From Paecilomyces variotii (Eukaryota): a stretch of 64,000 nt of DNA. The notes beneath the pieces were generated by a model that saw only the letters and a program-made list of their open reading frames with translations, was not told where the DNA came from and did not search any database. Below, one piece after another: positions 21,820 through 47,100 of the stretch. Where the stretch lies: assembly GCA_004022145.1 (NCBI GenBank), contig RCNU01000005.1. One strand, 5' to 3'. Made by a program: the position numbers and the translations under genes. How positions within the stretch are numbered: position 1 is the stretch's first letter; each line of letters begins with the position of its first letter.

Positions 21820-23689
21820 TGATAGAGATCTGGCTTTGCAGGTTCTTCTTTAGGGGAAAAAGGGGGTGTGGTTTCTCTTCTTTGTTTGGTCTGCTTTCTG
21901 TAGCAAGATATTGTCTTTAGAGAGACATGTCGGAGATCTGTTTTTTATATTTGGAGGGAGCGAGTCCCTGGTGTTGCATATGGAATTGGAGAGAAGCCTC
22001 GCCAGTCGATTTGCCGTCGGAGGCGAGACGTTGCGAGATCGACGATCGGCCAATCAGCGTGCGGAGCGCGCACTGAAAGGGCCGTGCGTATGCGATTACA
22101 TCTTTGGATACGACGATGTATGAAAAAGAAAGCATAGAGACTGATTTCTAATTAGAGTATGTTTGTCTGTGTATTTTATTACAAGCGTCTCCGGGGGCCA
22201 CACATACTGTGTGGCCTGGGCGGGTAAGAGAATTTGATGGGGGGCAGAACTTAGAACAGAAGGCAGTGAGCGTGTTAAAGTATACATTTTGGGGCGATCG
22301 CGTATTTATATATTTAACAAGGTCTTTAGCCACACATCCTATGTGGCTATCGCCCTTAATAGAAAGTAGTATTTAGCATATAGAGCTTAATAATTAGGAT
22401 AATATATTAGGACTTTAACGCTAACTACTATAGAGGCTTTAATACCTTATTTTATTTTATAGAATAGCCTATTTAAGTTCTTAATTAAAACCCTAAATAT
22501 TAGCTATTCTTTCTCTATCTCTTACCCCTAAATATAGAGTATAAGAGCTGTTAATATTCTTATACTAATAATATTTAATATCCCCTAAATCGCGATTATA
22601 ATAGACCCTAGATTTAACTCCCTAGATTTAATATATTTAATACCGACCTTAGATAATACCTGTTAGATAAATCCCTTAGATTAGAGTTTATCCCTAAACT
22701 TTATAATACTAGATAATCCTAGAGCTAGAGCTAGAGCAGCCTATTAAATTATTAACCTATTTAGATAGTAATCTATAGCTATTTTTATTTTATATAGCTA
22801 TTTTATACTTATCTACTATAAGAATTATAATTATTAACCTATATATATACTCTAGTCTAATATAGAAAGAGGTCTTTAACCCTAGCCTAAGATTAAATAT
22901 AATATATATAGATGCTAATAGCAGGAATCCCTTATACTTCTAATATTTTTTTAGCTAATATATTACCTATAATATAATAATAGTAAGCTTAATTATTAAT
23001 ATATTATATAGTAATTATAGGGCTAAATCTCTATATTAAGCTAACCCCTAATATTATACTATCTTATTTTTTTTATTCTTCTTATTTTAGAGAGTATATT
23101 AGTTAATAAATAATCCTTATTAATTAGTCTAGTAGAGCTAGGTATTTAGAAGAGATATATAGCCTAACTACTTAAAGCTAATTACTAAAAGTAAGTACTT
23201 ATTTAAACTATAAATTATTAAATCTAAAGCTATAATAACTAATTAATCTTATTCCTTAATACTCTACCTATTTTTACTTTTTTATCTTTTCCTTAAAGAT
23301 CTTTTCTGCAATAGATTTATTTATAAAATAATTATTAATATTATCTAATTAAGTGCTTTCTAAATTTAAGCCTTTATTTAAAGTCTTAGTTAAAAAGAAT
23401 AGGCCTAGATAGAATTCCTAGACTAATCTAATAGCTTAAAAGGCTAATAATACTTAGGGAGAAAGAGTATTAGCATATATAGTAGATATAAAATATATCT
23501 CTCTATTCTTAGTTAGGGTAACAGATTTTTTATAAAGGCTTAAGAAATAATTTCTTTAAACTACCTAATTTTATTATAATAAAATTATTCTTAAAGATTT
23601 TTTTAGAGTAAAATTTTAATTACTTAAAAAATTACTAGTCTTAACTGCTATTTTATAATACTTCTTCTTAATCTAGACTTATTAAATTA

Positions 23690-26020
23690 GTTAATCTTAA
23701 TTAACTTAAAAATCTTAAAAAATCTGCCTTTAGTAATAGTTTAATAAAACTATTTACTATTATATCTTATATTCTAATAAACTTAATACTAATCTTATTC
23801 TTTTAATATAGGTTATATATATAATAATATATAATATTAATATACTTTAATCTCTTATAGATATAGATATCTCTAATTAATAATAATAATACTTAATTAT
23901 CTCTATAGATTTTAACTAGAGAACTAATAATAAAAGCTTACTCTTTCCTTATTATTAGCTTAAATTTATTTAGATTAATATAATATCTATATTCTATATC
24001 TCTTAAAAGAAGGGCTAACTATTAAAACTGCTTTATTGCTTAATATATAGCTATATATTTAGCCTCTATAGTTAAAATTATAATAGACTTTTATTTCTTA
24101 TTTAATTAGCTTACTAGACTACTAGCTAATATAAAAATATTCCTTAAGATTAATATCTAATTAGTCTTATCTATTATATAATCTAAGTCTAAATATTTAA
24201 TAAATTACTAGTCTTAATTTATATTAAACTTAAGACTAAGGCATATAATTAATTATAAATATTTTATAAAAAACTTTAATATCTTAAAATACCTTTTAAA
24301 TAAATCTAATAAATATTAACTTAATCTGCCTATTATAAATATAATATCTAGTCTTATTAAAATTACTAAATAGATTAAGCTATTAATAATCCTTTAATAC
24401 TCTCTCTAGTTTATTCTTTTATTTTAAAAGCTAAATAATTTTAAAAAGTTATATCTATTTAATAAGATATTAACTAGATATATTTTCTCTTTATTTATTT
24501 TATATTATAATAAGAGTTCTTTAATATAATAAGATTAGTCTATTATTAATATTTAGTTCTTCCTATTTTAAGTAACTTAAACACTAAGAATCTTTTTTAC
24601 TTCTCTTAAGTTCTTTATCTTATATATTAATCTAAATTCTTATTTAAACTAGTAAATATTCTCTATTTATTTTATATTAATTAAAATATTATTAATATAT
24701 ACTAGGAATAAGATCTCTTTTTTTAAGTACTATAATAAGTATAGATTAGTATTAATTTATATAAAACCTATTTTCTAAAGTATTTTTATATAAGTTTAAT
24801 TCTAATCTCTTATAGCCTGCTTTAAGCTATATAGAGATTAAAGAACTTTTAATATTATTTCTAATAATATATTTATTCTTAATAGAAATACTATATAAAT
24901 CTCCTTTTTTAATATTAACTTTATAAAGATATTATTAATATCTATAATATAGTACTTATAATCCTCTATTATAATAATAGCTAGAAATACTTATAATATA
25001 TTATATTATAAGATAAGAATAAAGATATACTTAAAATTAATACTATATTTCTAAATAAACTCTTAAATAATAAGATATATCTTAAGCTTCTAAAGAGAAC
25101 TATTTAAATTATACTTTATAGCTAATACTTAATAACTAATTATAATATTAGCTCTTAATAATAGTATAACTACTTTAAAAGTTTTATTTACTTAAAGTAT
25201 ATCTATTTTAACTTTAAATATACTCCGCTATAATTTATTTTAAATAGAGTTATTAATTATAGTATAATATAAGTTTAAGATTAGAATATACTCCTTTACT
25301 ATATATATTACTATTATAATATTTAATATTTATTCTATATGCTTCTCTTAATCTATATTAATGCCTAGAGATAGGAGATTTAATATAAGCATTACTTAAT
25401 ATAATTTCTTAATATTCTGTTTATTATTTAATAACTTAACTTTCTCTCTCTTATACTTTATTATATAAGGGATCTCTATATAAGATATAACTTATCTACT
25501 TAGCAAGAATAAGGGGTTTATCTATAAATCTTTATAATTATTTAGATTATTAAAATAAAAATAATTAAATATTTCTTTTTATTCTATAATTTTATTATAA
25601 TAAAATATCTTAATTTCTTTTTAATAAAAAACTTCTTTTTCCTTTTAAAGAAAAACTAGAACTTCCTTATAACTCTTCTCCTAATTTTTAATATTATTCT
25701 TTTTTTTATTTAAGAATATATATATACTTAAAATAATAGGTTAGGTTATTAATTAACCCCTTAAATTTTTTATTAGTACTATATTTAATAATAATCTTTA
25801 GAGAATTTTAAGGTCTAAATCTCCTTTTAATTTATTCTTAAAGAACTTAGCTTAATAAATCTTAATAGTCTTTTTTATATTTAAAGCTTAAACTTTCTAC
25901 TATTTATTTATTCTCTTAATATATCTTATAAAAATATAAATTCTGCCTTAATCTATTAATTTATCTCTTTATATATCTTATAATAAAGATTCTAGATTTA
26001 TATATAATACTACCTAATTA
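23690..26020 (-). mobile_element. RIP-degraded Ty1/copia pol fragment (RT, RNase H, part of integrase)
   Basis: Minus strand reads IDINNIFIKLILKKEIYI (~24.9 kb; D.DNAF....L.EEIY), LVYIN (~24.7 kb; LVYVDD), TIEAKYIA (~24.06 kb; STEAEY.A) and IVNSFIKLL (~23.75 kb; ADGFTKPL), followed by a purine tract at ~23661-23669. Ends approximate. Confidence 0.8.
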
Positions 26021-26029
26021 TTATAGTGC

Positions 26030-29000
26030 TAGCATAGGGAATAGAATAAATAACCTACTAGCTAATGCTTACTTAATCTAGAAGAGTAAGGTTTATACTC
26101 TTTTAAATTATATAAGGAGTTATATAATCTTATAAAAATATCTTTAGCATATAGCTTAATCTAAATTTAAGTTCCTTAAGCTATATTTTATTTATTAAGC
26201 TTACTTATAATAGCCTATTTTAGTCTAAATTAGCTAGATAGAGATCTTATAGCTAGTCCTAGTATTAATTATCTTATTCTATTTATTTTAACTTATTCCT
26301 TAAGCTTATATTTTAATATTATATAGCTTCTATCTAGGAGTTAATACTATTAATAATATCTGCCTTAATTTTTTTATTCTTACTAACTATTTTAGGGGAG
26401 TTTATTAAGTATATTATTATTAGCTATAGGCTAAAATAGTATAATTATTATTATCTAGCATATAAATATATTGCTAGGGCTAAGTTATTTATAAATAAAG
26501 CTAGCTAATATATTAAATAGATTAAGGTAAAGTTTTAAAAACTCTAGTAAGAGTTTATAGCTATATAATAAAAGCTTAAATAAGAAAATATTAATCTTAA
26601 GACTATTTAGCAATATTAAGAGATATAGCTTAATAAAAAAAAATAATAATATATTTAGGCTATTTTTAAGAGAGATTAAGCTTACTATATAGCTATTTCT
26701 ACTATAAATATATTTATATTTATATTTAAATTTAAGCTTAGTATTAAGAGACTTATAGCTATTCTAGTAAAAGTATTTAAAATATTTATTATTATATTTT
26801 TCTCTGCCCCTAGATTTTTAAAGAGATTCCTTAATCTAAATAAATTTAAAGATAATTAAAAGGACCTTTAATGCTTTATAGCCTAGATTTAAGGAAAGAT
26901 AATAATTAATTAAAATTAATTCTTAACTTTTTAAAGCTATATAGCCTATATAATTAATTACTTAAAAAATACGCCCTATACTTAAATATTGCTATATATT
27001 AAAAATAAGACTTATATTCTTAATAACTATTAAGAGATTTTAAATATCTTAAAGCATATATTTAATAATCTTAATTATATAAATAATATATATAGTAAAT
27101 TATTTAACCTCTATTAAATTAATAAAGAATTTAGAATTTTTTTTACTAAGTTTTAGCGCCTAGCGCTAAAAAAAGAAATACCTAAAAAAATATTATTTAC
27201 CCTGCTTAAGTAAGTTATTAATTAAGAACTTTAAGGAATATTATTATATAGTTAGCCCTTAAATTATAAGTATTATTAATTTATTAAATTCTTATAAGAC
27301 TTTAAGAACTATTATTGCTAATATATTATAAATTAGCCCCTTATTATAAAGACTTATATTACTGTTTTAAAACTTATTTAGTATATTTAGTCTTTCTTAC
27401 TTATTTTAAGTCTTATCTTAACTATAAGATATAATAATTAGTCTTAGAAAAGCCCTATATAGAAGAGTAAATTAGCCTTAATATAGCTATATAATCTAAT
27501 AGATTTAAGTATTTTTAAATACTTAGGTAAGAGAGAGTATAGCTTATTATATTATAAAACTAGTACTTGCTTCTATTATAGCTCCCTAAAATATTATATT
27601 AAAGATTATTTATACTTAAATAACTGCTAGAAGATTTAGACTATAATTATATATAAATCTTATTCTTAAATTTCTTAGGCAATTTAATTCCTAGACTTAT
27701 ATAATCTATCTCTTAGCTAATCTTTAATAAAAGGAGTAAGCCTAGAGTAAGTTATAGCTAGGCTTAAGAATTATATATTATTTAAATCTTTACTGCTACT
27801 ATTTATAGAATTAATCTTAAAAAATATCTATAATAATTAAAATTAATAATACTATCTATAATATTAGAAAAAAAGAAAAAGAAGATTTACTTACTAATTT
27901 ATGCCCTATTTAATATTAAAACTAAAGGATAAAGATTTATAGACTAAGAATAGGCTAAAGATTAAAAATTAAAGCTTATCCCCCTAAAGAGTTTAATTAT
28001 CCTATATATATTTAATAGAAGAGAACTAAAGGATAAGAAGATTATATACTATATCTAGATAAATATAAGAATTAAAGACTATTTTAAGAAAGATACTAAG
28101 TTCTATATTATTTAACTAGCGTATTATCTTATTATTTTAGAACTTCTCTAATTAAAATACTATAACCTATATTTATAATTTATTACTTATAGTATTATTT
28201 TTAATAGTAATTATTATTAAAAGAATTATAATATACTCTTAAAGCTAATTAAAATACCTGCCCTATATAATATTTTCTTAAAGGCTTTACCCTAATACTT
28301 ACTTCTAAGACCTAAAAAATTAGAAGAGAGAAATATAGCCTTTATTTCTCTAGCTGCCTATTTTATCTATACTTAAAAAAATACTTTAATTTTTATAATT
28401 ACCTTAAAGAACCTAGATATTACTTTAAGGATTAAATAAGTTTAAGAAGAAGACTTTACTTACTTATTACCTAAGAAGTTTAAGAATTATATTAATATCT
28501 TTTCTCCTAAGAAGGCTAAGCACTTATTATTATATTATTTTTATAACTATAATATTAAGCTACTAGAAAAAAAGTTGCTTTCTTTTAGACCCCTATATAT
28601 TATATCTTAAGATAAATTAAAAGTCTTAAAAGAATAGATTAAAAAAAAACTTAAAAAAGAGATTTATTTATTTAAGCTTATTGCCTGCTATATCTCTAAT
28701 TTTATTTATTAAGAAGCCTAGTAGAGAGATATAGATTTATATAGATTATTAAGCTTTAAATATAATAATTATTAAAGACTATTAGACTAATACTCTCTGC
28801 CTTTAATTAAAGAGACTTTAAATAACCTAAAAGGAATAAAGTACTTTATAAAGATTAATATTATTTCTGTGTTTAATAACCTTTATATTAAGAAAGAATA
28901 AGAATACTTAACTATCTTCTATACTTAATTTAGTCTATTTAAATTATTAATAATACTATTTAGCTTAATAAAAGTATTAATAATATTTTAATAGTTTATT

Positions 29001-29625
29001 AATAATACTCTATAAGATTACCTTAATATCTTTTATACTATATATCTTAATAATATCTTAGTATATAGTATAACCTATTCTAAATATATTTAATATATTT
29101 ATGCTATCTTATAGAAGCTATATAAAATAAGCCTATATATAAAAATCTAGAAGTATAAGTTTATTATCTCTAAGACTAAGTTCTTAAGTATTATTATTAG
29201 CTAAGACTATATTAAGATAGATCTAGATAAGGTAAAAATAATTATTAAATAGAAGACTCTAACCTATATAATTAATATATAAGCCTTTATTAGGTTTAGT
29301 AACTTTTATTATCAGTTTATTTATAATTTTTCTAAGATAATTATACTATTTATAAACTTAACTTAAAAGGGAGTTCTCTTTAATTAGATATTTACCTATT
29401 AATCTAGTTTTAAAGCCTTAAAAAAAGCATTTATTTAAGCCCTAATCTTAAAGCTATTTAATTAGACCTATAAGGTTATAATTAAAACTAATTTATCTAA
29501 TTATATATTAGCTAAAGTTATATCCTAATATAATAATAAAGAAATCTTATATTCTATTATATTTTTCTTAAAAAAGCTCTTTACTATAAAGTATAATTAT
29601 AAGATTTATAATAAGGAATTGCTAG
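26030..29625 (+). mobile_element. RIP-degraded Ty3/gypsy element (family B): gag, protease, RT, RNase H; truncated at 29625
   Basis: Zn knuckle CFYYSSLKYYIKDY (~27570), [10 protein letters not shown] (~28790), IYLNNILVYS = YLDDILVYS (~29045), RNase H YNYKIYNKELL cut off by an LTR at 29626. Left end approximate. Confidence 0.85.
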
Positions 29626-29965
29626 TATAATAGGGAAGATTAGTATAAAGAATATAATTAGTTAAGAGATTATATGCTTTTACTTAAAGTCTTTAAAAAG
29701 TCTATAAATAAAGTAGAAGAGGAAGAATACAGTAAGAAGATAATACCTTTTAATTATTTAGAATAAAATAATTAGCTTTTTTTTTTCTATTATTATTTAA
29801 TATTAGTTCAGTATTAGATTATTATTAATTTATTATATTAGTTTATAGCTAAAGCTTTTCTTCTAGCTTTACTTTAAGCTCTAAAGCTAAATACCCTTCT
29901 CTTCCTTCTTAATACTTACTCACTTAAAGACTTTATATTAAGTCTTAATATATCTTTCTATAATA
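29626..29965 (+). repeat. 5' LTR, family A (heavily RIP-mutated)
   Basis: tataatagggaagattag...tatatctttctataata aligns to the other three LTR copies. Confidence 0.9.
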
Positions 29966-32900
29966 AATTAGAGCTAAATATAAAAAATATTAAAATATTA
30001 AGCAAAAATAAGAGAAAAAAAAATTAAAAGCTAAGGTTAAGGCTAAAGCTAAGGAAAGAAATAAAAAATAATAAAAAGATAAATAAAATAGCTAAAAAAG
30101 ATTACTACTATAAATAAAAAGAGATAAATATATCTCTTAAATTAATAGAGATAGCAAATATAATATAAGGCAAAAATATATATTAATAATAAGAGAAAAA
30201 AAAATTATTAAATATAAGAAAAAGCTTAGTAAATATAAAAGAAAAATAAAAATTTAGAAAAAATAAGAAATTATTAAGCAAGAACTATTTATTAAAAAAT
30301 AGAAGAATTTCTTATTATTATCTTTATTACTATTTCTTTAAAAAAATATAAAAAAAAGCACTAATTTTTTTAGTATTAATTAAGATAAAAGGACTTTTAA
30401 CTTCTTAATATCGCTAGGTCTAAAGATATAAATAGCTTAAGTATCTAAAAATATAAGACTACTAATAATATAATTAATCTAGATTATATTAGCTCTATAA
30501 ATACTAATACCTAGAAATCTTAGGGTATTATATTTTAAAGGGGATAATATTATTTATTACCTAAGGCTTTTTAAAAGGTTATATAAGGCAAATTAACTCT
30601 TAAAAAAAAATTAAATAATTTATAGATTATTATAGCCTATTAATATTATTATAGATAAATACTTAATCTAAATATAAAAAGAAAAATTATTTAAAATTAG
30701 TAGAAGCAATTAAATAAGAGTATACTTACTATAATAAATATTAAAGGAAATATAATATTTAATAGCTAAAAAGGTTTAAAAATATAAAATATAATAGCTT
30801 TAAAGATCTAAAAGAGTATAATTAAGAATATTAAACTATATTAAAAGCATTAATAATTTTAAATAAGTTAAGCCGATACTTATAAGAAGTTTAGTATCTT
30901 TAAGGACTTTTAGAAGAGCTTAAGTAATAAATAATTTAAGAATTAAATATAGACTATTATACTTTATTTACTATTAAATATATTAATTTTTATAAGAAGA
31001 TAATAAATAAGGTAAAAATAATTAAAACCTTTTATTATCTTAACAATAATAAACTAGAGAAAGATTAAGATATAATAATTTTAATAAAAAAAAAGGTAAT
31101 TAAAAAAAATAATATATAACTTCTTATTAAATCTAATAAAACTTACTTAAATAAAAATAAGAATAAGATTAAATAATAGAGCATTAAAATAAAGTTAATA
31201 AAGCAGTTATAAACTAATTAGTTAATAAAAAAGTTTAAGAAGTTAAAACTATATAATATATAATATATAAGGAGGCTTAATAATAGCATACTTAATGCTA
31301 GTATAAATATATAAGCTAGGGTATCTTTAGGATTTAACTTAACTAAAAGATTTAAAATATTTCTAAACTTATATAACTTTTACTGGGCTCTTAATTATAT
31401 TTAATCTTATTATTTAAAATTAAAAAGCCTCTTAAATTAAAAGCTTATTTATTAGAGAAAAGATTATAAATTTTATTTTAAGCTAAAAGAATAGAATAGA
31501 GAAGTTATTTATCTTATATAAAAGAATATATTATAAAAAGAAATTATTAAATAGAGACTAAAGGAAGAATAAAAAAATATTAGCTTAATTAAGTATAATA
31601 TTTAGTTAATTATATTAAGATAGCCTAGAGATAACTTAAGCTTTAAAAAAGAAGCTAAGGATATTATAAAAAATTACTACTCTATTAATATAATAAGATT
31701 AAATAAGCTTTAAAAAATAAAAAAAAAGATAAAGCAGGATTAAATAATTATATAAAAAAAAAACTATAAAAAGTAATTAAATAAGAATAGAGATTTCCTT
31801 TAATTAAGATAAACTAATTTAATAATTATTAGCCTTTAAATATAATTAAAAAAGTAAAGATAGTTAAAAAAAAATAAAAAATATACCTAAGCAGAATAAG
31901 GATAAAAAAATTATTAAAATAAAAGAAAAATAGAAGTTAAAGAAGTTTAAAATTATAGATAAGTTAAAAGGGACTACTAATATAATAGAGATTATAAACT
32001 AGATATTATATACTAGAGTTTAAATATTAATTTAGGACCTTATTAGTCTATCTCCTAATTTATATAAGGCCTTATTTACCTTATAACTATAGTAGGTAAT
32101 AATAAAGATAATATTTTATAATATTAAAGGAGTATAGTTTAATATCTCTATATTAAATATAGAATATATAATAAACAGTATAGATTAATATACTTATATA
32201 TTCTTATAATTTAAGCCTCTTAATAAAGATAAGGTATTATATGTAGCTATAACTCTAAAGTTACTAATTAAAATTAATAATTATAAAGAAATATAAAATA
32301 TTATAGTAAATAGTAGAGCTAAAATTAATATAATATATAGAGATATAGCAAATTACTATAAACTTATTATAAGCTAGAAATTTAGAGGTAATATAATATT
32401 AATAGATAATAAGCAGACCCCTTTATAAGTCTTTATAAAGAAATACTTATATAGATAAAATCTTTTTATTATAAGGTTTTTTTCTTTATAATAAATAATA
32501 AGATTAACTATAATTATATTCTAGGATAGCCTTTTAAGTATTAAGCATATTTATAGTATATTACTCTATTAGATAAAATAATAAAAAATATAATTTACTC
32601 TATAAACTAAAAGAATTAAGCTATTATTTAGGTATTTTTAATAAATAACTTAAGAAATAAATTAAGAGAAGAAATATTATATAATTTATTATCCCAGATA
32701 TAAGAATTATTAAACTAGAGCTAGAAAAGAATAATAGGCACTAGACTAAGAATAAAGAAGGCTTATAGGAGCTATACTTAATAAATAATATTAATTTTAA
32801 AGCAAGCGAGAAAATTAAAAGTAAAGAGATAGAAATATTTAAACCTATTAAATTAAATAAAGGAATTAAAAAATTATAAGAATATAGACTATTTAAAAGA

Positions 32901-35900
32901 TATAACCTTTTTACTATAAAAATAAAATATTTTATTAATATATAATATAAGAAGAAATATAAAAAGATTTATTTAATAAATATATTAAACAGACCTATAA
33001 TAGCTTTAAGAGGGTTATTAAAATAAAAAAAATTATTAGGGAGTATTATTATAGGAACCCTTAAAGAAGTATAAAAAAAATATATAGAGGATTTACTAAA
33101 TATATCTAGCTAAAGATATTAAATATTAGGAGAAGAATAAGATTAATATTAGACTATCTAAAGAATCTTATTATAAGTAATAATTTATAGCTAAAAGAGA
33201 AAAAACTATTAATAAAAATGCTTTTCGCCTAAAAAGTAGTCTTTATCTAAATTTTTAAAGAGATTAGATAAATGCGCCTAAAAGTTATATTTCTAATTAT
33301 TATTTAAACTATAGATTATAAACTATAGCAAATAAAAAGCTTTCTAGTATTAAAGGCACTTTATAATATAGTATAAAGAATAATAAAAAAGAGGATAAAT
33401 ATAGGGATCCTTAAATATAGTTAAAGACCCTACCAAAATCTATAATTCTTAATAAAAAAGAAAAATAATAAATATTGGCTAATTAATGCAGTTATAAAAG
33501 TTAATTAAATAATAATATAAGATATTAATCTGCCCCCTTTAGCTAATAAGTTCTTAGAAGAGTTTAGTAGAATATTAGTATCAATATTTATAGACTTGTT
33601 TTCTAGATATAATTAGTTAGAATTAGCTAAAGAATTACAGGACTTAATAGCTTTCTATATGCTAGAGATTAGTTTAATTTATTAAGCTAAATTACCCTAA
33701 GGATAGATAAATATAGTACAGGAATTTATATAAAGAATTATAAGAGTATTAGTAGATAATATTTCTAATATCTATAATATATTTCTAGATAATATGCTGA
33801 TATAAGGACCTAAGACTAATTATAGGGGGGAAGAGATACTGCTGGGAATTAGAAGATTTATATTTAAATATATTTAGAATATTAATAAGGTATTATACAG
33901 TCTTAAACTTGCAGGTTTAATAATTATTAGGGAGAAATTATAATTTATAATATTAAGAATTAAAATAGTAGGCTATATATATAATACTAAGGGGAGATAT
34001 CCTAAATTAGCTAAGATAATTAAGATTTTAGAGTAGCTACTTTATTAAAATTTATAAAAAATAAGAGGATTTCTAAGAGTTATAGCCTATTACTAAATAT
34101 AGATTAAAGAATATATTACTAAAGCTGAGCCAATATACTTAATATTAAGGAAGGGATAAGACTTCCTTTAAGGGCTAAAATAATAAAAAATAATAAATAC
34201 TTTAAAAATAGCCCTAATAATAGTACTGGCATTTAAGCCAATTAATTATAGAGAGAGAGGCATAATTATTATTAATATTAATGCTAGTAATAGTAAATAG
34301 GGGGCTTAACTTATTTAAAAAAAAAAAGGAGTTTAATAAGAGACACCCAGCTAGATATAAAAGTGGAGTATAAATATAAATAGAGAGGCAATATAATAAA
34401 GGAAAGCTAGAGTATAGGGCAGTATTAAAAATGTTTTATAAATTTTAAATATATTTATATAGTATATACTTTTAATTAGAGGTAGATATAAAAACTCTAA
34501 TAATATAATTAAATAGGATAGCTATAGACCTCCTTAAGTTAATAATTATTTAGTAGATTGCTTAGATTTAGCTATTTAACTTTAATATTATTTATATATT
34601 AGGGAAAAAAAACTTAGTTATAAATAGGTTATTTTAAAAGCTAATAATAGAGCAAGATCTAGAAGAGGCAAAAGATAATAATATAAAAAAATTCTTAGAC
34701 CTATAATTTTATATAGTTTATTATATTAGTATATAAGAGGTAGAATTAAATAGTACCCCTTAATTAATACCTATATTATATTAGTCAGAAAAGTCTTTAT
34801 TAATTATAGAATAATTATAAACTATAATAAAACTAGATAATATAAATAGAGGATAATATGCTAAGTTTAAGAAAGAGACCCTAAAATATATAGTCTAAGA
34901 TAGTGTGCTTTTTTAGAGAGTATAATAAAATCAGCCTTATTATATAGTTATTAATAATAAGAAAAAATAAAAAGAAATTCTTATAGCTTTTTATAAAAAG
35001 TATAAATATTATAAATATAAAGTAATCTATTAAAAGGTGGCTAATTAATATTAATAAAAAGGCTTATATAAATATATTATTAGATAGATAAAGATATATA
35101 ATAAATGCTAGAAAGCAGATAAAGAATATATAAAAAAAGCTTTATAATTAATATTTATTCTATTAAAAAGATTAAAGCTATATCTAGATATTTATAAGAT
35201 TATACTGCCTAATAAGAGAAAGACTTATATTATAGTATTTTAGGATAACTTTAGCTAAGTTAAATATAAAATCCTTAGCAGCCTTACTTTAGGAGCTATT
35301 GTTAAATTTTTATAAGAAGACTAGATTTATTATTAGGGAATAATAGAGACTTTTATTAATAATAAAAGACTAGAGAATAAAACTATAGTTAATATATTAA
35401 TATAGAAGTATAAGATTAATTATATTAAAGTCTTACTATATAATTTATAAATAAATAGAGCAGTTAAAGTTATATATAAATCTTTTATATATAGTATTAA
35501 AAAACTTGTAAAAAGAATAAGAATAAATTAAGTAAATTATTTACTAGTAATAATTTAAATAAATAAGAATATAGTTAAGATCTTTATAGGCTTAATATTA
35601 TTTAGAGTAATTATAGGATATAATACTATATTACTAATTAAACTAAAAATGCCTATCTAAAAGATTTTAATATAGAATAAGGTTAGGACTATAGAAGATC
35701 TTCTACTCCTTTATATATAATAGATAGAGCTCTAAGATTAAGATATAGAAAAGGCCTAATTTTATATTTAATATATAAAAAAAGCTAGTAAAGAAATCTT
35801 TAATAATAAAAAATAGCTCTGCGAAGAATAACTAATAGAAAAATAATTTATTTTATTTTATAATATAAAGCTTAAGATATTTTATTTTATAAAACTAATA

Positions 35901-36699
35901 TACTGCTAGCTTAGATTATATAAGATTAAAAAAATCTTTAAGAAAAGATCTTATAAGCTTAAGAAGTTAGATAGTATATCTTTTAGGGACCTAATTTATA
36001 AAAATTATTTAAAAGGCTATTATTTATAAGAGGATTAAAATAAAATACTAATTATAAATAATAATATAATATTTAAATAAAAAAATTAGCAATTAAGTAA
36101 TAATAATAATAATATAGACTAGATATTATCTAGATCAGAATATATAGTTATAGTCTTAATATCCTCCTTCTAAAAATATTAGCTTAAAAAGAGAGAAGTA
36201 AAAAGCTAATAATAAAATAAGTTTAATACTAAGCAAAAATACTATAATAGGAAGAAAAGGAGAATAAACTTAAGATAAGGGCGTCTTTTTTTAGGGAAAA
36301 AAAGGATTTAAAAATGCCTAAAGATAATTAAGAAAAAAGAAAAAGAGAGATAATTAAAAAATATATGATATTAGCTTAAATATCTTAAAAAAGTCTATAA
36401 ATAAAGCCAAAAACAGAAAATATTAGATAAAAAATATAAATAATAAATAAAGAATTCTTACCTTATTATAAAAACCTTATTTTTTATATTATATAATATT
36501 ATAGCAAAAATAACTAGAGACTAAATTAAGCTAAACTTAACTCTATCTTACCTTTTAAATATATCTTTTTACTCAGAAATTATTTCAAAGAATTATTTTA
36601 TAAAGATATATATTAAAAATAAAAAAAAATATATTAAAAATATAAAATATTATCTATTAAGATAAAGCTCTTTAACTTAAAATATATATATATACTATA

Positions 36700-39440
36700 G
36701 TTAGCAAAATTTATAAGCTTATAAAGGAGATAATAAATAAGGCTAATAATAAAAAAGAAAAGGTTTAGTTTATAAATAATATAGCAATAATTATTTTAAA
36801 TTTTTAAAGCAGGCATAATAAAATAGCCAGTAATTTTTATAATTTTTTAAATTAATAAGAGCTATTAAAAGAAGTAAGAAAGAAAAAAGTGCTAGCTATT
36901 AATAAGCTAAAAAAATTAAAAATATAAGCAGAAAAGAACTATAAATATATTAATAAAGATTATTATAAAGTTATAAAGAAATAGGGCTAGGAGACTATAG
37001 ATTAAGTCTTATTAATTATTAAAAAATTATACTAGATCTTAGTAACTATAAGAGGATTAGCTTTTAATATTAGAGACTAGAAAATAGCGGCTATATATCT
37101 AGCAAGAGTATAAATTAATAGACTTTATAATATTAAGAAATAAGGAATATTAACTAAAAAAAGCCTTTAATTAACTAATATTAAAAAGATAAGAGATATT
37201 TTAAGAAAAGCCCTTAGTAGAGAAGGACTAATTCTTTAAAAGCTTATTAATAAAGAGCTATAAAAGGTTAAAATAAGAGTAAAGAAAAATAATCTTTTAG
37301 AGGAAATTATAGGAGAAAAAGAAGAATATTAAATAAAAAATTTAAATAAGAGCTTATTAATAGATCTAATATTAGATAAAGGAGAGGAAAATATAAAGGA
37401 AGAGGAAAAAAAAAAAAAGAGGATTAAGAGTCTTAAAAAGCTAAAAGGGGAAAAAAAGCTTAAGATTTAAAATAAAAAGAAATAGCTAAAAAAAAGATAT
37501 AAATATAAGATTAGTATATCTATATTAATAAAAAAGGCTATTATTAATTTAGAAGGCAAAAAAGTATTAAAATTTTTAAAAAAAAAAAGGATTAAACCAG
37601 CCGCTATATATTAAGTTTATATTAAAAAAGTATAAAATATAATAGGACTAAGAAGTATAAAAAATAATATTTTTAAAAAAAGATTAAAAATACTTATAGA
37701 TAGTAATAATAATCTTAAATCTTAGAATATTAATATAAACTACTGGAAATAGTTTTAATAGAGATAGAGATTTAATACTAATCTTAAAAATTATTATTGC
37801 CTAGATAAGAAGAAAATTAAAGTATAGTCTTAGCTAAGTAAATTAAATATAAATATTAAGGAGGTTAAAGAAGTCTTATAATAGATTAATTTTAGAAAGA
37901 TTAACTTAATCTGCGAGCTTTATATATAATTATTAGCTAATATAATTAATATAAAGAAGGATATATCTATAAAAGAAGCTAGAAGAGTATTAAAAGTAAT
38001 AAGAAATATAAAGCTAGCAATAGTAAAATAATAAAAAAAGGGACTATTTAAAGTAATAACTTATCCTTATAGAAGTTTATTTAAAGAAACTAAATAATCT
38101 ATAAGTAAAACCTCTAAAGATAAATAAGTAATAAAATCTCTTAATAGAGCCTTAAAAACTAATATAAAACCCTCTTTTTCTATAATAAACCTAAAAGACC
38201 CCTTTATTAAAAAAAAAATTAAATACTTAAAAAATATGCAGAATACTAGAATTATATAGTTTAAAGATAATATAGAGGCTAAGCAGATGCCAGATATACT
38301 TAATAATAGCTAGATTAAAGGAAGAATAAAGAGTCTTATTCTAGGAAGTCCTAAAAATATAAAAGATAAAGATAATATAAAAATTAAAAAATCCTTATTT
38401 AAAGACTTTCTCCCTAAGAAATTCCTAATATTAAGAATAGTTTAACTATTTAGAGATCTTGGGTTAATTAATATAAATACTTCTAATAATATACTAAGTA
38501 GCTTATACTATAAAGTCTGAGATAATCTATATAGGGCTAAAGAGTATCCCAAATCTAAATATAGGGATAAAAAATATTTTAACCTAAGTAAAAAAGACTT
38601 CACCCTAAATAAGATATAGGACTAATATATTTAGTTAAGAATTATAATAAGGGAGAACTTTAACTATTAGGAAATAAATAGGGTTTTTTAAATTATGCCC
38701 TTTAAAAGGAAATTAGTAAAAAGAATATTATAATATACTACTATAAAAGTAAAAATAGCCCTTTATTATAAGAAGGAGGGTAAAGGAATAATAGGGTTTA
38801 AAAACTTATCTAAAAATATTCTCTAGAAGATTATTATATAAAATATCTAGATCTATTTAATCTAATTAGCGCTATATAGTTATAATAAATATAGGCTGCA
38901 GGTCTAATATTTTAGGGGATATAAGCTAAAAGTATTAAATATAGAGACTGCTATCCCTAAGGAAAGAATAGGCTAAAGCTTTATAGCCCTAAGAACTAGA
39001 CTAATTATTAGAGATAAATCCAAAAAAACTATAGGCTTAAGAGATATTATACTTAGGCAAAGAGAAATAACCTTTATTAGTAATTTATATCAGCTAATAC
39101 TAAAGAATTAGAGAATAAATCTTAATAATATCTGTTATTTTAATTATAGGGAGCAAGATAAGATAAAATCTAATTAAGGAAAATCTGGGCCTTTTAATAT
39201 TTAGGTAAATAGAGTTATAGCTATAGGTAGAGCAATACTTAATCAGCTAAATTAAAATTACTTAAAAGTTAAAATAGAGCTATACTTTATACTAAAGCAA
39301 GATATATTATTAATTTAAGATTATCTATAAAAGAAAGAAACTCAGCTTTATAAATTAGAGATTTTAAGATATATATAATACTAGAAATTAGAGTATTCCT
39401 GCTTTAAAAATAATTTATAATATTAAAAGGAGGAGATAAT
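36700..39440 (+). pseudogene. RIP-inactivated ~900-codon extra ORF (ORF3) inside the family A element
   Basis: One reading frame (+1) gives protein-like text from ~36721 to ~39440, with stops consistent with RIP of TGG/CAG/CAA/CGA codons. It lies between the end of pol (~36170) and the PPT. Confidence 0.65.
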
Positions 39441-39501
39441 ATAGACTATAATAACTAAAGAAAATAAATAGGGGTATCTACTCTTAAAGGAGAAGAGGCT
39501 A

Positions 39502-39827
39502 TATAATAGGGAGGATTAGTATAAAGAATATAATTAGTTAAGAGGTTATATATTTTTACTTAAAGTCTTTAAAAAGTCTATAAGTAAAGCAGGAGAAGAG
39601 AGATAATATCTTTTAATTATTTAGAATAAAATAATTAGCTTTTCCTTTCTATTATTATTTAATATCAGTTTAATATTAGATTATTATTAGTTTACTATAT
39701 CAGTCTATAGCTAAAGCTTCTCCTCTAGCTCTACTTTAAGCTCTAAAACTAAATACCCTTCTCTTCTTTCTCAATACCTACTCGCTTAAAGACTTTATGC
39801 TAAGTCTTAATATATCTTCCTACAACA
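39502..39827 (+). repeat. 3' LTR, family A
   Basis: tataatagggaggattag...cttcctacaaca, preceded by the PPT, with the terminal CA retained. Confidence 0.92.
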
Positions 39828-41608
39828 GTAAGACTTTAATATAGTTAATTTTATACTTTTATATTAATATATTAATTACAGCTTTATTCTCTAATCTTTT
39901 ATTATTAATAAGAGTCTCTATTACTCTTTAATAATAAATCTAATTTTTTTATAGAAACTTAGCAATAGCTCTTAAAATAAGGCTATTAAAAGTTTTATAT
40001 TTAACTTAATTAAAATTATCCTAAAGTATTATAATATAAGTCTTTCTTTTATTAGGTAGTATAATCTTATAAATATTTAAGTATAGTTTTAATCTCCTTA
40101 ATAGAATAAATATTAACTATAAAGCTTCTTTTATATATTCTTTATCTGCTTTTTAATATTTATTATATATCTTTATTTATTTAGTAATATATTTATATAG
40201 GCCTTTCTATTAATATTAATTAGCTATCTTTTAATAAATTACTTTATATTTATAATATTTATGCTCTTTATAAAGGGCTATAAGAATTTCTTTTTATTTT
40301 TTTTTATTATTAATAACTATATAGCAAAGCTGATTTTATTATACTTTTTAAAAAAGTATACTATCTTAAATTATATACTTTAAGGCCTCTTTCTTAAACT
40401 TAGCATACTATCCTTTATCTATATTATCTAATTTTATTATAATTTATAATTATTCTATAATTAATAAAGACTTTTCTAACTAATATAATATAGGTATTAA
40501 CTAAGGGATATTATTTAATTCTATCTTTTATATACTAGTATAATAAACCGCATAAAACTATAGGTCTAAGAATTCCTTTATATTATTATCTTCTATCTCT
40601 TTTAAGTCTTATTTTATTATTAGCTTCTAAGATAATCTATCTATAATTAAATTTTTTTTCTCTAATATATAGATAATATTAAAATTAAATAGCTAAATCT
40701 AAGCAATTTATTAAATAATTATTAATCTAGGGAGATTTATAACTATTCTATTTAATTATATTATTAGAGTTTTTATATCTATCTCTAGTTAAAAATATAT
40801 ATTATATAAGTATACTTAAAATTTATAAAATATCTTTAGTACTGCCCTATATTCTAGCTTTCTTTTATTATATTGCCTCTTTGCCTATATCTATACTTTA
40901 CTTTTATATTTAGCTAGGTATCTCTTATTAAACTCCTTTTCTTTTTAAATAAGTTAAGCCCCCTATTTATTGCTACTAATATTAGTATTAATAATAATTA
41001 TACCTCTCTCTCTATAGTTAATTAGCTTAAATATTAATATTATTATTAGGGCTACTTTTAAAGTATTTATTATTTCTTATTATTTTAGTCCCTAAAAAAA
41101 GTCTTATCCCTTTCTTAATATTAAATATATTAGCTTAGCTTTAATAATATATCCTTTAATCTATATTTAGTAATAGACTATAACTCCCAGAAATCCTCTT
41201 ACTTCTTATAAATTCTAATAAAATAGTTACTTTAAGATCTTAATTACCTTAACTAACTCGGGATATTTCCCCTTAGTATTATATATATAGCCTATTACTT
41301 TAATTCCTAATATTATAAATTATAATTTCTCTTTAATAATTATTAAACTTATAAATTTAAGACTATATAGTATCTTATTAATATTCTAGATATATTTAAA
41401 TATAAATCTTCTAATTTCTAGCAGTATCTCTTCCCCCCTATAATTAATCTTAGGTCCTTATATTAGCGTATTATTTAGAAATATATTATAGATATTAAGA
41501 ATATTATCTATTAATACTTTTATAATTTCTTATATAAATTCTTATACTATATTTATCTATCCTTAAGATAATCTAACTTAATAAATTAAACTAATCCCTA
41601 ATATATAG

Positions 41609-41936
41609 TGTTGTAGGAAGACGTGTTAAGACTTAGCATAGAGTCTTTAAGCAAGTAGGTATTAAGAAGGAAGAGAAGGGTATTCAGCTTTAGAGCTCAG
41701 AATAAAGCTAGAGGAGAAGCTCTAGCTATAAACTAACATAGTAAACTAGTAATAATCTAATACTAAACTAATACTAAATAATAATAGAAAGGAAAAGCTA
41801 ATTATTTCATTCTGAATAACTGAAAGGTAGTATCTCCTTACTCTCCTGCTTTACTTATAGACTTTATAAAGACTTTAAGCAAAAGCACATAACCTCTTGA
41901 CTAATTATATTCTTTACACCGATCCTCCCTACTACA
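41609..41936 (-). mobile_element. Solo LTR of family A inserted in the RT of the inverted copy, 4-bp TSD ATAG
   Basis: TGTTGTAGG...CCCTACTACA flanked by ATAG on both sides (41605-41608, 41937-41940). Removing it plus one ATAG restores colinearity with ~33640-33685. Confidence 0.93.
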
Positions 41937-44900
41937 ATAGAAAACTATTAAGTCCTATAATTCTTTAGCTAACTCTAACTAATTATACCTAGAGAATAAA
42001 TCTATAAGTATTAATACTAGTATTCTACTAAACTCTTTTAAGAACTTATTAGCTAAAAAGGGCAGATTAGCATCTTATATTATTATTTAATTAACTTCTA
42101 TAACTATATTAATTAGCTAATATTTATTATTTTTTTTTTATTAAAAATTATAAATTTTAGTAGGATTTTTAACTATATTTAAGAATCCCTATATTTATCC
42201 TCTCTTTTATTATTTCTTATACTATACTATAGAGTGCCTTTAATATTAGAAAGCTTTTTACCTATTATAGTTTATAATCTATAATTTAAATAATAATTAA
42301 AAATATAACTTCTAGGTATATTTATTTAATCTCTTTAAAGATTTAAGTAAAGACTATTTCTTAGGCAAAAAGCACTTTTATTAATAATTCTTTCTTTCTT
42401 AGCTATAAATTATTACCTATAATAAGGTTCTTTAAACAGTCCAGTGTTAATCTTATTCCTCTCTTAATATTTAATATTTTTAGCTAGATATATTCAGTAA
42501 ATCCTTTATATATTTTTTTTATATTTCTTTAGAGGTTTTTATAATAATATTCCCTAATAATTTCTTTTTATTTTAATAACCCCCCTAAAGCTATTATAAG
42601 TCTATTTAATATATTTGCTAAATAAACCTTTTTATATTTTTTCTTATACTATATATTAATAAAATATTTTATTTTTATAATAAAAAGATTATACTTTCTA
42701 GATAATTTATACTCTTATAACTTTTTAACTTCTTTATTTAATTTAATAGGTTTAAATATCCCTATCCCTTTATTTTTAATTTCTTTATTTACTCTAAAAC
42801 TAATATTATTTATTAAATATAGCTCCTATAGGCCTTTTTTATTCTTAATCTAATATTTATTATTCTTTTCTAGCTCTAGTTTAATAACTCTTATATTTAG
42901 GACAATAGATTATATAATACCTCTTCCCTTAACTTATTTCTTAGATTATTTATTAAAAATACCTAAATAATAGCTTAATTCTTTTAGTTTATAGAATAAA
43001 TTATACTCTTTATTATTCTATCTAATAAAGCAATATACTATAAATATACTTAATACTTAAAAGGCCGTCCTAGAATATAATTATAGTTAATCTTATTATT
43101 TACTATAAAAAAGGGACCTTATAATAAAAAGATTTTACTTATATAAGTACCTCTTTATAAAAACTTATAAAAGGGGTTTATCTGCTATCTGCTAATATTA
43201 TATTATTTTTAAATTTCTAGTTTATAATAAGTTTATAATAATTTGCTATATCTCTATATATTATATTAATTTTAGCTTTACTATTTACTATAATATTTTA
43301 TACCTTCTTATAACTATTAATTTTAATTGGCAATTTTAAAATTATAGCTATATATAGCACTTTATCTTTATTAAAAGGCTTAAATTATAAGAATATATAA
43401 ATACACTAATCTGCATTATTTACTATATACTCTATATTTAATATAGAGGTATTAAACTATACTCCTTTAATATTATAGAATATCGCCTTTATTATTACTT
43501 ACTGCAATTATAAAGTAAATAAGGCCTTATATAAATTAGGAGATAGACTAATAAGATTTTAAATTAATATTTAAACTCTAGTATCTAATATCTAGTTTAT
43601 AACCTCTATTATATTAATAATCCCTTTTAGCTTATTTATAACTTTAAACCTCTTTAACTTTTACTTCTCTTTTATCTTAATAACCTTTTTATCCTTACTC
43701 TATTTAGGCGTATTCTTTATTTTTTTTTTAATTATCTTTACTTTTTTAATTATACTTAGAGATTAATAATTATTAAATTAGTTTATCTTAATTAAAAAAA
43801 TCTCTATTTTTATTTAATTACTTTCTATAGCTTTTTTTTATATAATTATTTAATCTTGCTTTACCTTTTTTTTACTCCTTAAGGCTTATCTAATCTTATT
43901 ATATTAATAGAATAATAATTTTCTATAATATCCCTAGCTTCTTTCTTAAAGCTTAAATTATCCTTAGGCTATCTTAGTATAATTAACTAGATATTATACT
44001 TAATTAAACTAATATTCCTTTATTCTTCTTTTAGTCTTTATTTAATAATCTTCTTTTATAATATATTCCCCTATATAAAATAAATAACTTCTCTATTCTA
44101 TTCTTCCGGCCTAAAATAAAATTTATAATCTTCTTTTTAATAAATAAGCTTCTAATTTAAGAGGCTTTTTAAATCTAAGCAATAAAATTAAATATAATTA
44201 AAAGCCTAGTAAAAATTATATAAGTTTAAAGGTATTTTAAATCCTTTAATTAGGTTAAATCTTAAAAGCGCCCTAGCTTATATATTTAAGCTAGCATTAG
44301 GTATACTATTATTAGGCCTCCCTATATACTATATACTATATAGTTTTAACTTCTTAAACTCTTTTATTAACTAATTAATCTATAATTATTCTATTAACTT
44401 TACTTTAATACTCTATTATTTAGTCCTATTCTTATTCTTATTTAAATAGATTTTATTAAGTTTAATAAAAAGTTATATTTTATCTTCTTTAATTATCTTC
44501 TTTTTTATTAAAGCTATTATATCTTAATCTTTTTCTAATTTACTGCTGTTAAGATAGTAAAGAGTTTTAATTATTCTTACCCTATCTACTACTTTCTTAT
44601 AGAAATTAATATATTTAATAATAAATAAAATATAATAGTCTATATTTAACTCTTAAACTATTTATTATTTAAGCTCCTTTAAAAATCCTTAAAGATACTA
44701 AACTCCCTATAAATATTAGCTTAATTTATTTAAAATTACTAGCACTTCTAATATAGCTTAATATTTTTAATTATACTCCCTTAGGTCCTTAAAGCTATTA
44801 TATTTTATATTTTTAAACCTTTTTAGCTATTAAATATTATATTTCCTTTAATACTTATTATAATAAGCATATTTTTATTTAATTGCTTTTACTAGTTTTA

Positions 44901-45634
44901 AGTAATTCTTCTCTTTATATTTAGATTAAATATTTATCTATAATAATACTAATAGGCTATAATAATCTATAAATTATTTAATTTTTTTTTCTTTTAAGAG
45001 TTAATTCGCCTTATATAACCTTTTAAAAAGCCTTAAATAATAAGTAATATTATCCCCTTTAAAATATAATATCCTAAGATTTCTAGATATTAGTATTTAT
45101 AAAGCTAATATAATTTAGATTAGCTATATTATTAATAGTCCTATATTTTTAAATACTTAAGCTGTCTATATCTCTAGACCTAATAATATTAAAAAGCTAA
45201 AAGTCCTTTTATTTTAATTAGTATTAAAAAGATTAATACTTTTTTCTATATTTTTTTAAAAGAATAGTAATAAAAATAATAATAAGAAATTCTTCTATTT
45301 TTTAATAAATAGTTCTTATTTAATAATTTCTTATTCCTTTTAAATTTCTGTTTCTCTTTTATATTTATTAAGCTCTTCCTTATATTTAGTAATTCTTCCT
45401 TTCTCTTATTATTAATATATATTTTTATTCTATATTATATTTGCTGTCTCTATTAATTTAAGAGATATATTTATTTCTTTCTATTTATAGTAGTAATCTT
45501 CCTTAATTATTTTATTTATCTTTTTATTATTTTTTACCCCTTTCTTTAGCTTTAGCTTTAATCTTAGCTTCTAATTCTCCTTTCTCCCTTATTTCTATTT
45601 AATATTTTAATACCTCCTATATTTAGCTCTATTT

Positions 45635-45959
45635 TATTATAGAAAAATATATTAAGACTTAATATAGAGTCTTTAAGTAAGTAGGTATTAAAAAGAAAGA
45701 GAAGGGTATTTAACTTTAGAGCTTAAAATAAAGCTAAAAAAAAAAGCTTTAGCTATAGACTAATATAATAAACTAATAATAATCTAATGCTAAACTAATA
45801 CTAAACAATAATAAAAAAAAAGCTAATTATTTTATTCTAAATAACTAAAAAATATTATCTCCTTTCTCCTGCTTTATTTATAGATTTTTTAAAGACTTTA
45901 AGTAAAAGCATATAACCTCTTAACTAATTATATTCTTTATACTAATTCTCCCTACTACA
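45635..45959 (-). repeat. 5' LTR of the inverted family A copy
   Basis: Aligns to the solo LTR in the same orientation. Confidence 0.9.
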
Positions 45960-47100
45960 ATAGCTAGTAGCCTCTGCCTGCCTTTACTTTAGTCTCCCTA
46001 TTAAAGATTTTAACTAGCTACTAATATCTTATCTTATTATTAATTTAGCTATTAAAAGAGGAGGTAAAAAAGTATTTATAAATTTTAGGGTTAAATATTT
46101 AAAGCTATATATTTTATAATTCTTTTAATATAGCCTTATAGATTAAAGCTAATAATAGCAATATTCTATCTATATAAATAATAATAAGCATTATAATCTA
46201 TTCCCTATTCCTATCTTAAATTAATTATTTAATATATCCCTGCTTATAATAATAGTAAAAAAAGATTTTTTTAATTTTTTTTAAGACTCTAATTATAAAA
46301 CCCTTCTTATTTATATTATAGATATTATATAGCTTAATATTAAATTTCTATAGCTTTTAATCTATAAACTTAAAATATAGGGAATATTTAAATACAGAAT
46401 TAGCTTATTTGCGTAAGATATTTATAATAATACCCCAGGCTAATAGAAGGTCTTTCTTATATCTCTTTATAAAATATAGTGGCTACTACTGCCCGGGCTC
46501 CTTTTTAGAGATTTCTTTTATAAAATTTTATAATATTTTATATAAGGGAGGTAGGCTATATTCTGTAAGGCCATTAATCTATTTAATAAGTATTTTCTCT
46601 TACTAAATATTTAGGAATTATTAATTTTTATATTAGACTATTAACAGGCCCTAGACGCCCTTATATTATTATAATAGAGTTATTTAGTTTATACTATATT
46701 TTTTTACAGTTTTTATGTAATTAGGCTTTTTACTAGGCTTTAAAAACTTTAAATCTTTAAGAGCTAATAAAATAAGATCCATATTGGTAGTTTAGTGGGT
46801 GGTTAAATTAATTGGGGAATTTTTAAAAAAACAGTCGGCAGGTAGAAACAGTCATCAGATGACTAAACACAGTAATTTTAGACATCTTATCATCGAATAA
46901 GGCTGGCCAAGCTTTCATATAATAGGCCAAGTTATTCTTTCAGCTAGCCCCTAAACAGTCTGGCTGCCCGATGATTGAAAAAGAAAAGCAATACTTAAAA
47001 TCATCGAGGATGCCATTCCGCTGACGCCTCGTATGTTTTCTCTGCTCCGCTCTACGGGGCACAGAAAGCAGAGACAGCCGGGGGATCCCCCATACACGCG

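Follow-up and report, generated by a model that had tools for sequence, protein, structure and literature searches.

A RIP-inactivated 941-codon ORF, probably an accessory gene, downstream of pol in a Ty3/gypsy retrotransposon of Paecilomyces variotii

The stretch of DNA studied here (the window: 64,000 nucleotides of contig RCNU01000005.1, assembly GCA_004022145.1 of Paecilomyces variotii) contains a 25-kb block of low GC content (about 22,500-47,000; 16-24% GC, against 43-54% in the flanks) that houses a Ty3/gypsy retrotransposon of ~10.2 kb, which we call copy A. Between the integrase and the 3' long terminal repeat (LTR) of copy A, where a preliminary description made from the letters alone had proposed a cargo open reading frame (ORF) of about 900 codons, we find a 941-codon gene in sense orientation, ORF3 (36619-39444, plus strand), that has been inactivated by repeat-induced point mutation (RIP). 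Its coding span runs from 36619 to 39441 and its native stop codon, TAG, is kept at 39442-39444. The window copy is an inert relic, since RIP has turned its ATG start into ATA and introduced 63 internal stops; indeed, 28,000-42,000 contains no open frame as long as 60 aa. This landscape matches the two-part genome of P. variotii, in which, according to the portion of the published account available to us, ~50% GC DNA is broken by ~20% GC regions produced by RIP of retrotransposons (Urquhart et al., 2018; PMC6300479).

The evidence that ORF3 was once a gene is strong despite its decay. Frame +1 reads as protein throughout, as the preliminary description had noticed, every 300-nt bin over 36601-39300 showing 3-9 stops per 100 codons, against 12-21 in the other two plus-strand frames. 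When this frame is read with X at the stops, the resulting query (P0004) aligns by BLASTP with an intact 941-aa hypothetical protein of P. variotii (P0019, a cluster member; KAJ9246654.1, KAJ9396751.1) from residue 1 to residue 941, with 483/941 identities (51%), 683/941 positives (73%), 0 gaps and an E value of 0.0. In the opposite direction, tblastn of P0019 on the window yields a single match, at 36619-39441. Codon by codon, 483 positions are identical to P0019, 457 are reachable by C>T/G>A changes alone, and only 1/941 is left unexplained (T790 of P0019, where the window has GCC). With shuffled references the means are 53 identical, 137 reachable and 752 unexplained, so that 940/941 codons are identical or C>T/G>A-only with the true reference versus about 190/941 with a shuffled one. 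Each of the 63 internal stops stands where P0019 has Q (26), R (23) or W (14), which bears out the earlier reading of them as RIP-type. The dinucleotide indices tell the same story: in ORF3 (20.6% GC) TpA/ApT is 1.36 and (CpA+TpG)/(ApC+GpT) is 0.33, in pol they are 1.31 and 0.38, and in the flank 0.74 and 1.29. RIP targets repeated DNA; ORF3 is as heavily RIPped as pol, and was by implication a repeat at the time RIP acted.

Within the element, ORF3 shares the strand of pol and starts 596 bp past the last mapped integrase residue, beyond the end of pol and a non-coding spacer (36024-36618, plus strand) in which no low-stop frame is found over 36301-36600. Its stop codon ends 41 bp ahead of the polypurine tract AAAGGAGAAGAGG (39486-39498, plus strand), recognised by its sequence and by the alignment of LTR borders, and 57 bp ahead of the 3' LTR (39502-39827, plus strand), which the tract abuts. 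With the integrase mapped to 36023 and the LTR beginning at 39502, the interval of ~3.3 kb that had been estimated between pol and LTR proved correct.

The element around ORF3 was bounded through direct repeats and self-blastn. Its 5' LTR (29626-29965, plus strand) starts with a mutated TGTAGTAGGG and ends with a mutated CCTACAACA, as seen in the direct repeats and in a four-LTR alignment; the 3' LTR was placed by direct repeats, blastn, LTR alignment and border sequence. The direct repeats are spaced 9862-9876 bp apart, the two LTRs share 86.6% identity (blastn, 29621-29963 versus 39498-39825), and their ends are of the TG...CA kind, the less mutated copies reading TGTAG...CTACAACA. The integrase frame, read with X at the stops, retrieved a gypsy pol fragment as its sole match (P0025; E 2e-28, 26% identity), which carries the domains PF17919, PF17917 and PF17921. 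Using this fragment in tblastn, the C-terminal part of the reverse transcriptase (RT), the RNase H and the integrase could be placed at 33500-36023 (plus strand): residues 1-261 fall on 33500-34288 (frame 2) and residues 253-839 on 34278-36023 (frame 3), and P0025 is colinear with the whole region in the order RT, RNase H, integrase. Pfam, run on the X-read frames of the element, gave only RT_RNaseH at E 0.009, which illustrates that DNA mutated to this extent is nearly invisible to it.

Copy A is not the only trace of ORF3. A phmmer search with P0004 against 1.84 billion representative proteins returned 14 matches at E <= 0.001, nine of them at <= 1e-10 and three at <= 1e-30, all fragments of 42-340 aa. 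By cluster look-up, every match with a named source is a hypothetical protein of P. variotii, the rest coming from Logan, ENA or JGI/IMG contigs. Over residues 439-492 of P0019 there are five differing versions (the window, P0007, P0009, P0013 and P0019): P0007, P0009 and P0013 each have 8 changes absent from the window, and the window has 16, 6 and 3 changes absent from them. Two more versions of ORF3, P0005 and P0015, are lightly mutated. Where they align well, more distant paralogues share 44-60% identity with P0019, and they keep the cysteine-histidine patterns and C-terminal blocks described below; the short fragments P0012, P0014, P0016 and P0024 were misplaced in the MAFFT alignment and their identities are left out. 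As judged from these sequences, ORF3 is multi-copy: public protein libraries contain one of its segments in five or more forms that differ in their mutations, besides the diverged paralogues. In a sequencing-run index, 5 runs labelled with one and the same organism contain a fraction of 0.56-0.68 of the sampled words, and food-fermentation and grain metagenome runs 0.17-0.22, from which we draw no conclusion on habitat or strain.

A separate observation concerns annotation. P0005, P0008, P0017, P0018 and P0020 are short hypothetical proteins annotated in several P. variotii strains (NCBI/UniRef) that correspond to fragments of ORF3 or of its paralogues, or to chimeric gene models. These gene annotations probably mark transposon relics, and the practical consequence would be that several short hypothetical proteins of this species are pieces of a transposon gene and not host genes.

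The intact P0019 allows the architecture of the protein to be described, and most of what the preliminary description had discerned through the mutations can be recognised in it. Residues 1-250 are acidic and helical, with helices at about 30-170 modelled at a predicted local distance difference test (pLDDT) of ~70-78 in the second of two AlphaFold2 models, in agreement with the helical N-terminus proposed earlier. The lysine-rich linker is there too: one third of residues 251-292 are lysines, and the stretch includes KKRTKSPKKPKGEKK, which resembles a nuclear localization signal. Residues 293-475 hold two CxC-x34/37-CxxH units. The first (CxC-x34-CxxH, residues 294-334; 37498-37620, plus strand) has lost its three cysteines and its histidine to tyrosine in the window, while two cysteines of the second (CxC-x37-CxxH, residues 392-435; 37792-37923, plus strand) survive. 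Two or three such units had been suggested from the strings RYKYK...IYXVY and NYYC...ICELY; these are the mutated forms of the two. The pattern is kept in diverged paralogues, unit 1 in P0012 and unit 2 in P0016, with the CEPH part in P0014/P0024. Residues 476-610 form a disordered linker, rich in Ser, Glu, Thr and Pro and poorly aligned among paralogues. The last ~330 residues (611-941) make up a C-terminal domain with blocks conserved in P0008, P0010, P0011, P0017 and P0018, namely NLSRSILQK..QD...YLI.LAL.G.GEH and F.Y.E...IR.DQGG.GPFD....GVTAIG, and the C-terminal strings quoted from the window are present in frame +1. An envelope (env) protein can be rejected, as had already been argued: no transmembrane segment was detected in P0019, whose highest Kyte-Doolittle mean over 19 residues is 1.27, and its N-terminus is acidic and helical. 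The suggested likeness to PhyH/2OG-Fe(II) dioxygenases did not hold either, with no oxygenase profile matching P0019 or ten ORF3 fragments, and with H653 of the sole C-terminal HxD motif replaced by Leu in the paralogue P0008.

A second copy of the same gypsy family, copy B, adjoins copy A in inverted orientation (39828-45964, minus strand) and extends from the 5' LTR through to the integrase, with no ORF3 region left. It ends at the point equal to 35437 of copy A, exactly where the 3' LTR of copy A ends. The two copies match by blastn over 29621-33658 and 45964-41937 (87.7%) and over 33655-35437 and 41608-39827 (88.2%); between the two matches copy B is interrupted by a nested solo LTR (41611-41943; blastn LTR match 41943-41611) with CTAT on both sides. 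In the second aligned part (33655-35437 versus 39828-41608) ~12% of sites differ, and a score that considers only purine and pyrimidine classes reaches 1776 over 1783 bases. Almost all differences between A and B are therefore transitions, as RIP predicts.

We consider it probable that ORF3 at 36619-39444 is the dead, RIP-mutated third gene of a Ty3/gypsy element of P. variotii or of a very close relative, and likely that it belonged to this element lineage as a regular accessory gene instead of being an accident of copy A. A number of results weigh against this. To begin with, the window contains no second instance of the pol-ORF3-LTR arrangement, its only other copy, B, ending before ORF3. 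Copy A also shows no matching target-site duplication (GCTAG before, GTAAG after), and even when transitions are disregarded the 2 kb upstream of it (27601-29625) do not continue copy B (score 35, against a shuffle mean of 37.6 and 1776 for the positive control). The lack of a matching duplication and a 5' flank that is not the remainder of copy B make copy A a likely recombinant: its two ends probably come from two insertions joined by recombination, or else the 3' part of copy B has been deleted. We read the missing duplication as the mark of a recombinant of two copies, and not as evidence against the Ty3/gypsy class.

Other unfavourable points come from database and structure searches. No full-length relative of ORF3 outside P. 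variotii was found by phmmer, word-indexed, metagenome or viral-contig searches: a word-indexed search with P0005 among longer proteins gave no match, one with P0019 among proteins of near-equal length found 0 among 7999 scored (the 239-aa representative of its cluster lies outside that length range), a metagenome scan with P0019 gave 138 pattern matches of which 0 were confirmed, the LTR motif had 0 matches in metagenome contigs, and viral contigs yielded no match. Nor did a word-indexed search with the integrase region recover an intact pol of this gypsy family, its one match being 26% identical. Pfam at E values up to 10 reported only DUF6874 for P0019, at E 0.17 and under its cut-off, and no family for the ten ORF3 fragments. 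Against the PDB, the best sequence match of P0019 had an E value of 0.18 and a profile search returned nothing. The AlphaFold2 models of P0019 had a mean pLDDT of 37.0 from the single sequence and of 43.4 with a 7-row alignment, with only residues ~30-170 at about 70, and Foldseek found 0 matches to the PDB at E <= 0.001 with the better, still poor, model. P0019 is absent from the Atlas, where P0017 has no usable feature match and all structure rows are at TM <= 0.30. Lastly, the resemblance between the two CxC...CxxH units is of modest significance (score 46, z 3.6, reached by 6/500 shuffles).

The probable recombinant nature of copy A and the lone pol-ORF3 junction would fit the capture of a host gene or foreign segment beside the 3' LTR by a single lineage or one chimeric copy, or else an origin of copy A by recombination between an autonomous element and a non-autonomous relative made up of ORF3 and these LTRs. 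If it belongs to this family, the retrotransposon Tn123 of P. variotii could be taken to point the same way, being given as 7,091 bp, shorter than the 10.2 kb seen here, in the portion of PMC6300479 at hand. We nevertheless hold such origins to be unlikely. ORF3 stops just short of a polypurine tract proper to this LTR family and has pol within ~600 bp on the same strand, RIP has struck both equally, several ORF3 versions have mutated independently, and neither the 1.84 billion representatives nor the word-indexed search contains an intact host-gene relative of ~900 aa. A related possibility, which the preliminary description had itself raised, is nesting: the 3.3-kb segment would be a mobile element in its own right, inserted into the gypsy element, and ORF3 would be its gene. 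Nesting is common in this block, as the solo LTR inside copy B and the contact between copies A and B illustrate, but neither the direct-repeat scan nor self-blastn found repeats, terminal inverted repeats or a second LTR pair around the segment, the 41 bp from the stop codon of ORF3 to the polypurine tract are too few to accommodate the termini of an inserted element, and Pfam assigns P0019 to no family, be it a transposase, an RT or any other. This makes nesting very improbable.

It is just as hard to believe that ORF3 represents a host gene family of P. variotii whose annotated paralogues are real members and whose copy in the window entered a transposon by accident. Gene annotations do exist for paralogues, in the reference strain and in others (P0017 and P0020 have RefSeq and UniRef entries), but all 14 phmmer matches are fragments and P0019 is the sole full-length form. 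The alignment of P0017 consists of two blocks that lie apart, and the sequence that separates and follows these blocks is unrelated, which fits gene models laid over decayed copies. As for a low-stop frame arising by chance or composition in purine- and AT-rich DNA that was never a gene, the antisense frame r1 is also low in stops over 37201-38400 and Pfam is empty on the mutated DNA, yet the gapless match to an intact protein and the codon test against shuffles have already refuted the idea, to which we give practically no credence.

If ORF3 is an accessory gene of the element, how it was expressed can be partly guessed from the spacer that precedes it. An 18-nt LTR motif that holds TATAAATA is repeated exactly at 36389-36406 (plus strand), 213 bp upstream of the ORF3 start, and constitutes a candidate internal promoter. 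The 18-mer is exact at 29696, in the 5' LTR, and at 36389, has one mismatch at 39572 and at 45872 (minus strand), is otherwise confined to LTRs and had 0 matches in 100 shuffles; blastn extends the resemblance between LTR and spacer to 29671-29713 and 36362-36406 (86.7%). A sigma-70 promoter scan was set aside as inapplicable to a fungus. If the motif is the core promoter of the LTR, ORF3 could have had its own transcript, and it was probably transcribed separately, either from this spacer promoter or as a spliced subgenomic RNA.

What the protein might have done can be proposed from its composition and motifs. The helical N-terminus could mediate oligomerisation, the KKRTKSPKKPKGEKK stretch could direct nuclear entry, and the two putative zinc-holding CxC...CxxH modules could bind nucleic acid or chromatin, so that the protein would aid the element in handling its RNA, in integration or in escaping host silencing. 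That ORF3 encoded such a nuclear, oligomeric helper is a tentative proposal, suggested by its N-terminal helices, its basic stretch and its Cys/His modules. Bolder still, and in our view doubtful, would be the claim that ORF3 founds a new family of ascomycete retrotransposon accessory proteins, nuclear and oligomeric, with a new double CxC...CxxH zinc module and its own promoter, required for replication or for blunting host genome defence, for instance repeat silencing; it would then be an equivalent in fungi of what accessory genes are in complex retroviruses. In complex retroviruses, accessory genes sit at the 3' end of the genome. The likeness lies in the location after pol and before the 3' LTR, in the nuclear signal predicted for ORF3 and in its probably being transcribed separately; ORF3 differs in being far larger and in having no relation of sequence or fold to these genes, and its mechanism is inferred.

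The zinc modules of transposon-derived proteins provide another comparison: THAP modules are of the C2CH type and SWIM modules read CxCxnCxH, and ORF3, also encoded by a mobile element, shares with them the order Cys-Cys...Cys-His, interrupted by a long spacer. However, its CxC-x34/37-CxxH units lie in a helix-rich context and have no Pfam zinc-finger match at E up to 10, and neither THAP, SWIM, BED nor the CxC domain of KDZ transposases was matched in Pfam by P0019, P0012 or P0016. On present evidence ORF3 is not a member of these groups.

To our knowledge, fungal Ty3/gypsy elements are usually described as carrying gag and pol only. Extra ORFs in LTR retrotransposons are established in animals, and they are established in plants too, where the accessible portion of PMC7264820 documents ORFs beyond gag and pol. 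The additional ORFs (aORFs) of plant Ty3/gypsy elements of the Tat, Ogre and Athila type, which that portion presents as sense genes following pol, resemble ORF3 in lying inside the LTRs, between integrase and polypurine tract, and in having a mostly obscure function. ORF3 is set apart by its ascomycete host, its lack of a Pfam family and its not being env-like, the comparison being one of descriptions only.

From a fungal host comes brtn of the Boty-like element BcGypsy1 of Botrytis cinerea, likewise a gene additional to gag and pol in a fungal gypsy element. It is reportedly, going by the title of a 2011 paper by Zhao and colleagues, an antisense gene of Boty. ORF3, in contrast, is a sense gene of 941 codons; the comparison is one of orientation. 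Other additional ORFs in the BcGypsy classes are mentioned in the part of Porquier et al., 2021 (PMC8365987) at our disposal. A literature search for an ORF3 or additional ORF in fungal gypsy elements led to the Botrytis cases only and to no account of the present P. variotii ORF; a supplementary figure on the BcGypsy additional ORFs (PMC8365987) may bear on how rare such genes are. In P. variotii itself, Tn123 of strain CBS 144490, a putative Tf2-type retrotransposon, is also Ty3/gypsy-type and has RIPped copies in ~20% GC blocks, but the portion of its report available (PMC6300479) makes no mention of an extra ORF in its 7,091 bp, against ~10.2 kb for the present element, again a comparison by description only.

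Extra ORFs in gypsy elements being already known, what appears to be new here is a large accessory ORF in sense orientation, without an assigned family, in a fungal gypsy element. With such a sense ORF of 941 codons, which some strains keep intact and which diverged paralogues conserve, a fungal retrotransposon would gain an accessory gene. Its product is a concrete candidate for a part in retrotransposition, or in the contest between the element and RIP or silencing.

The remainder of the block can be described briefly. The 5' portion of copy A (29966-33499, plus strand), comprising gag, protease and the N-terminal part of RT, is heavily RIPped and recognisable by low-stop frames and by its 88% identity with copy B over 29621-33658; no Pfam match was obtained for 29966-33499, although FLDN..GPK, the mutated core of RT, is readable there in frame 2. 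The DNA just after the 5' LTR is common to copies A and B in the alignment. Upstream of copy A, a further ~7 kb (22500-29620) of 16-20% GC share only short AT-rich blastn matches with copies A and B and gave no tblastn match with five queries (P0019, P0008, P0012, P0017 and P0025); they are presumably relics of other repeat families. Within pol, copy A passes near 34280 from the RT/RNase H frame (frame 2) to the RNase H/integrase frame (frame 3). P0025 maps unbroken on copy B, and this frameshift is therefore private to copy A; it is the sole defect noticed in the element that is not of RIP type.

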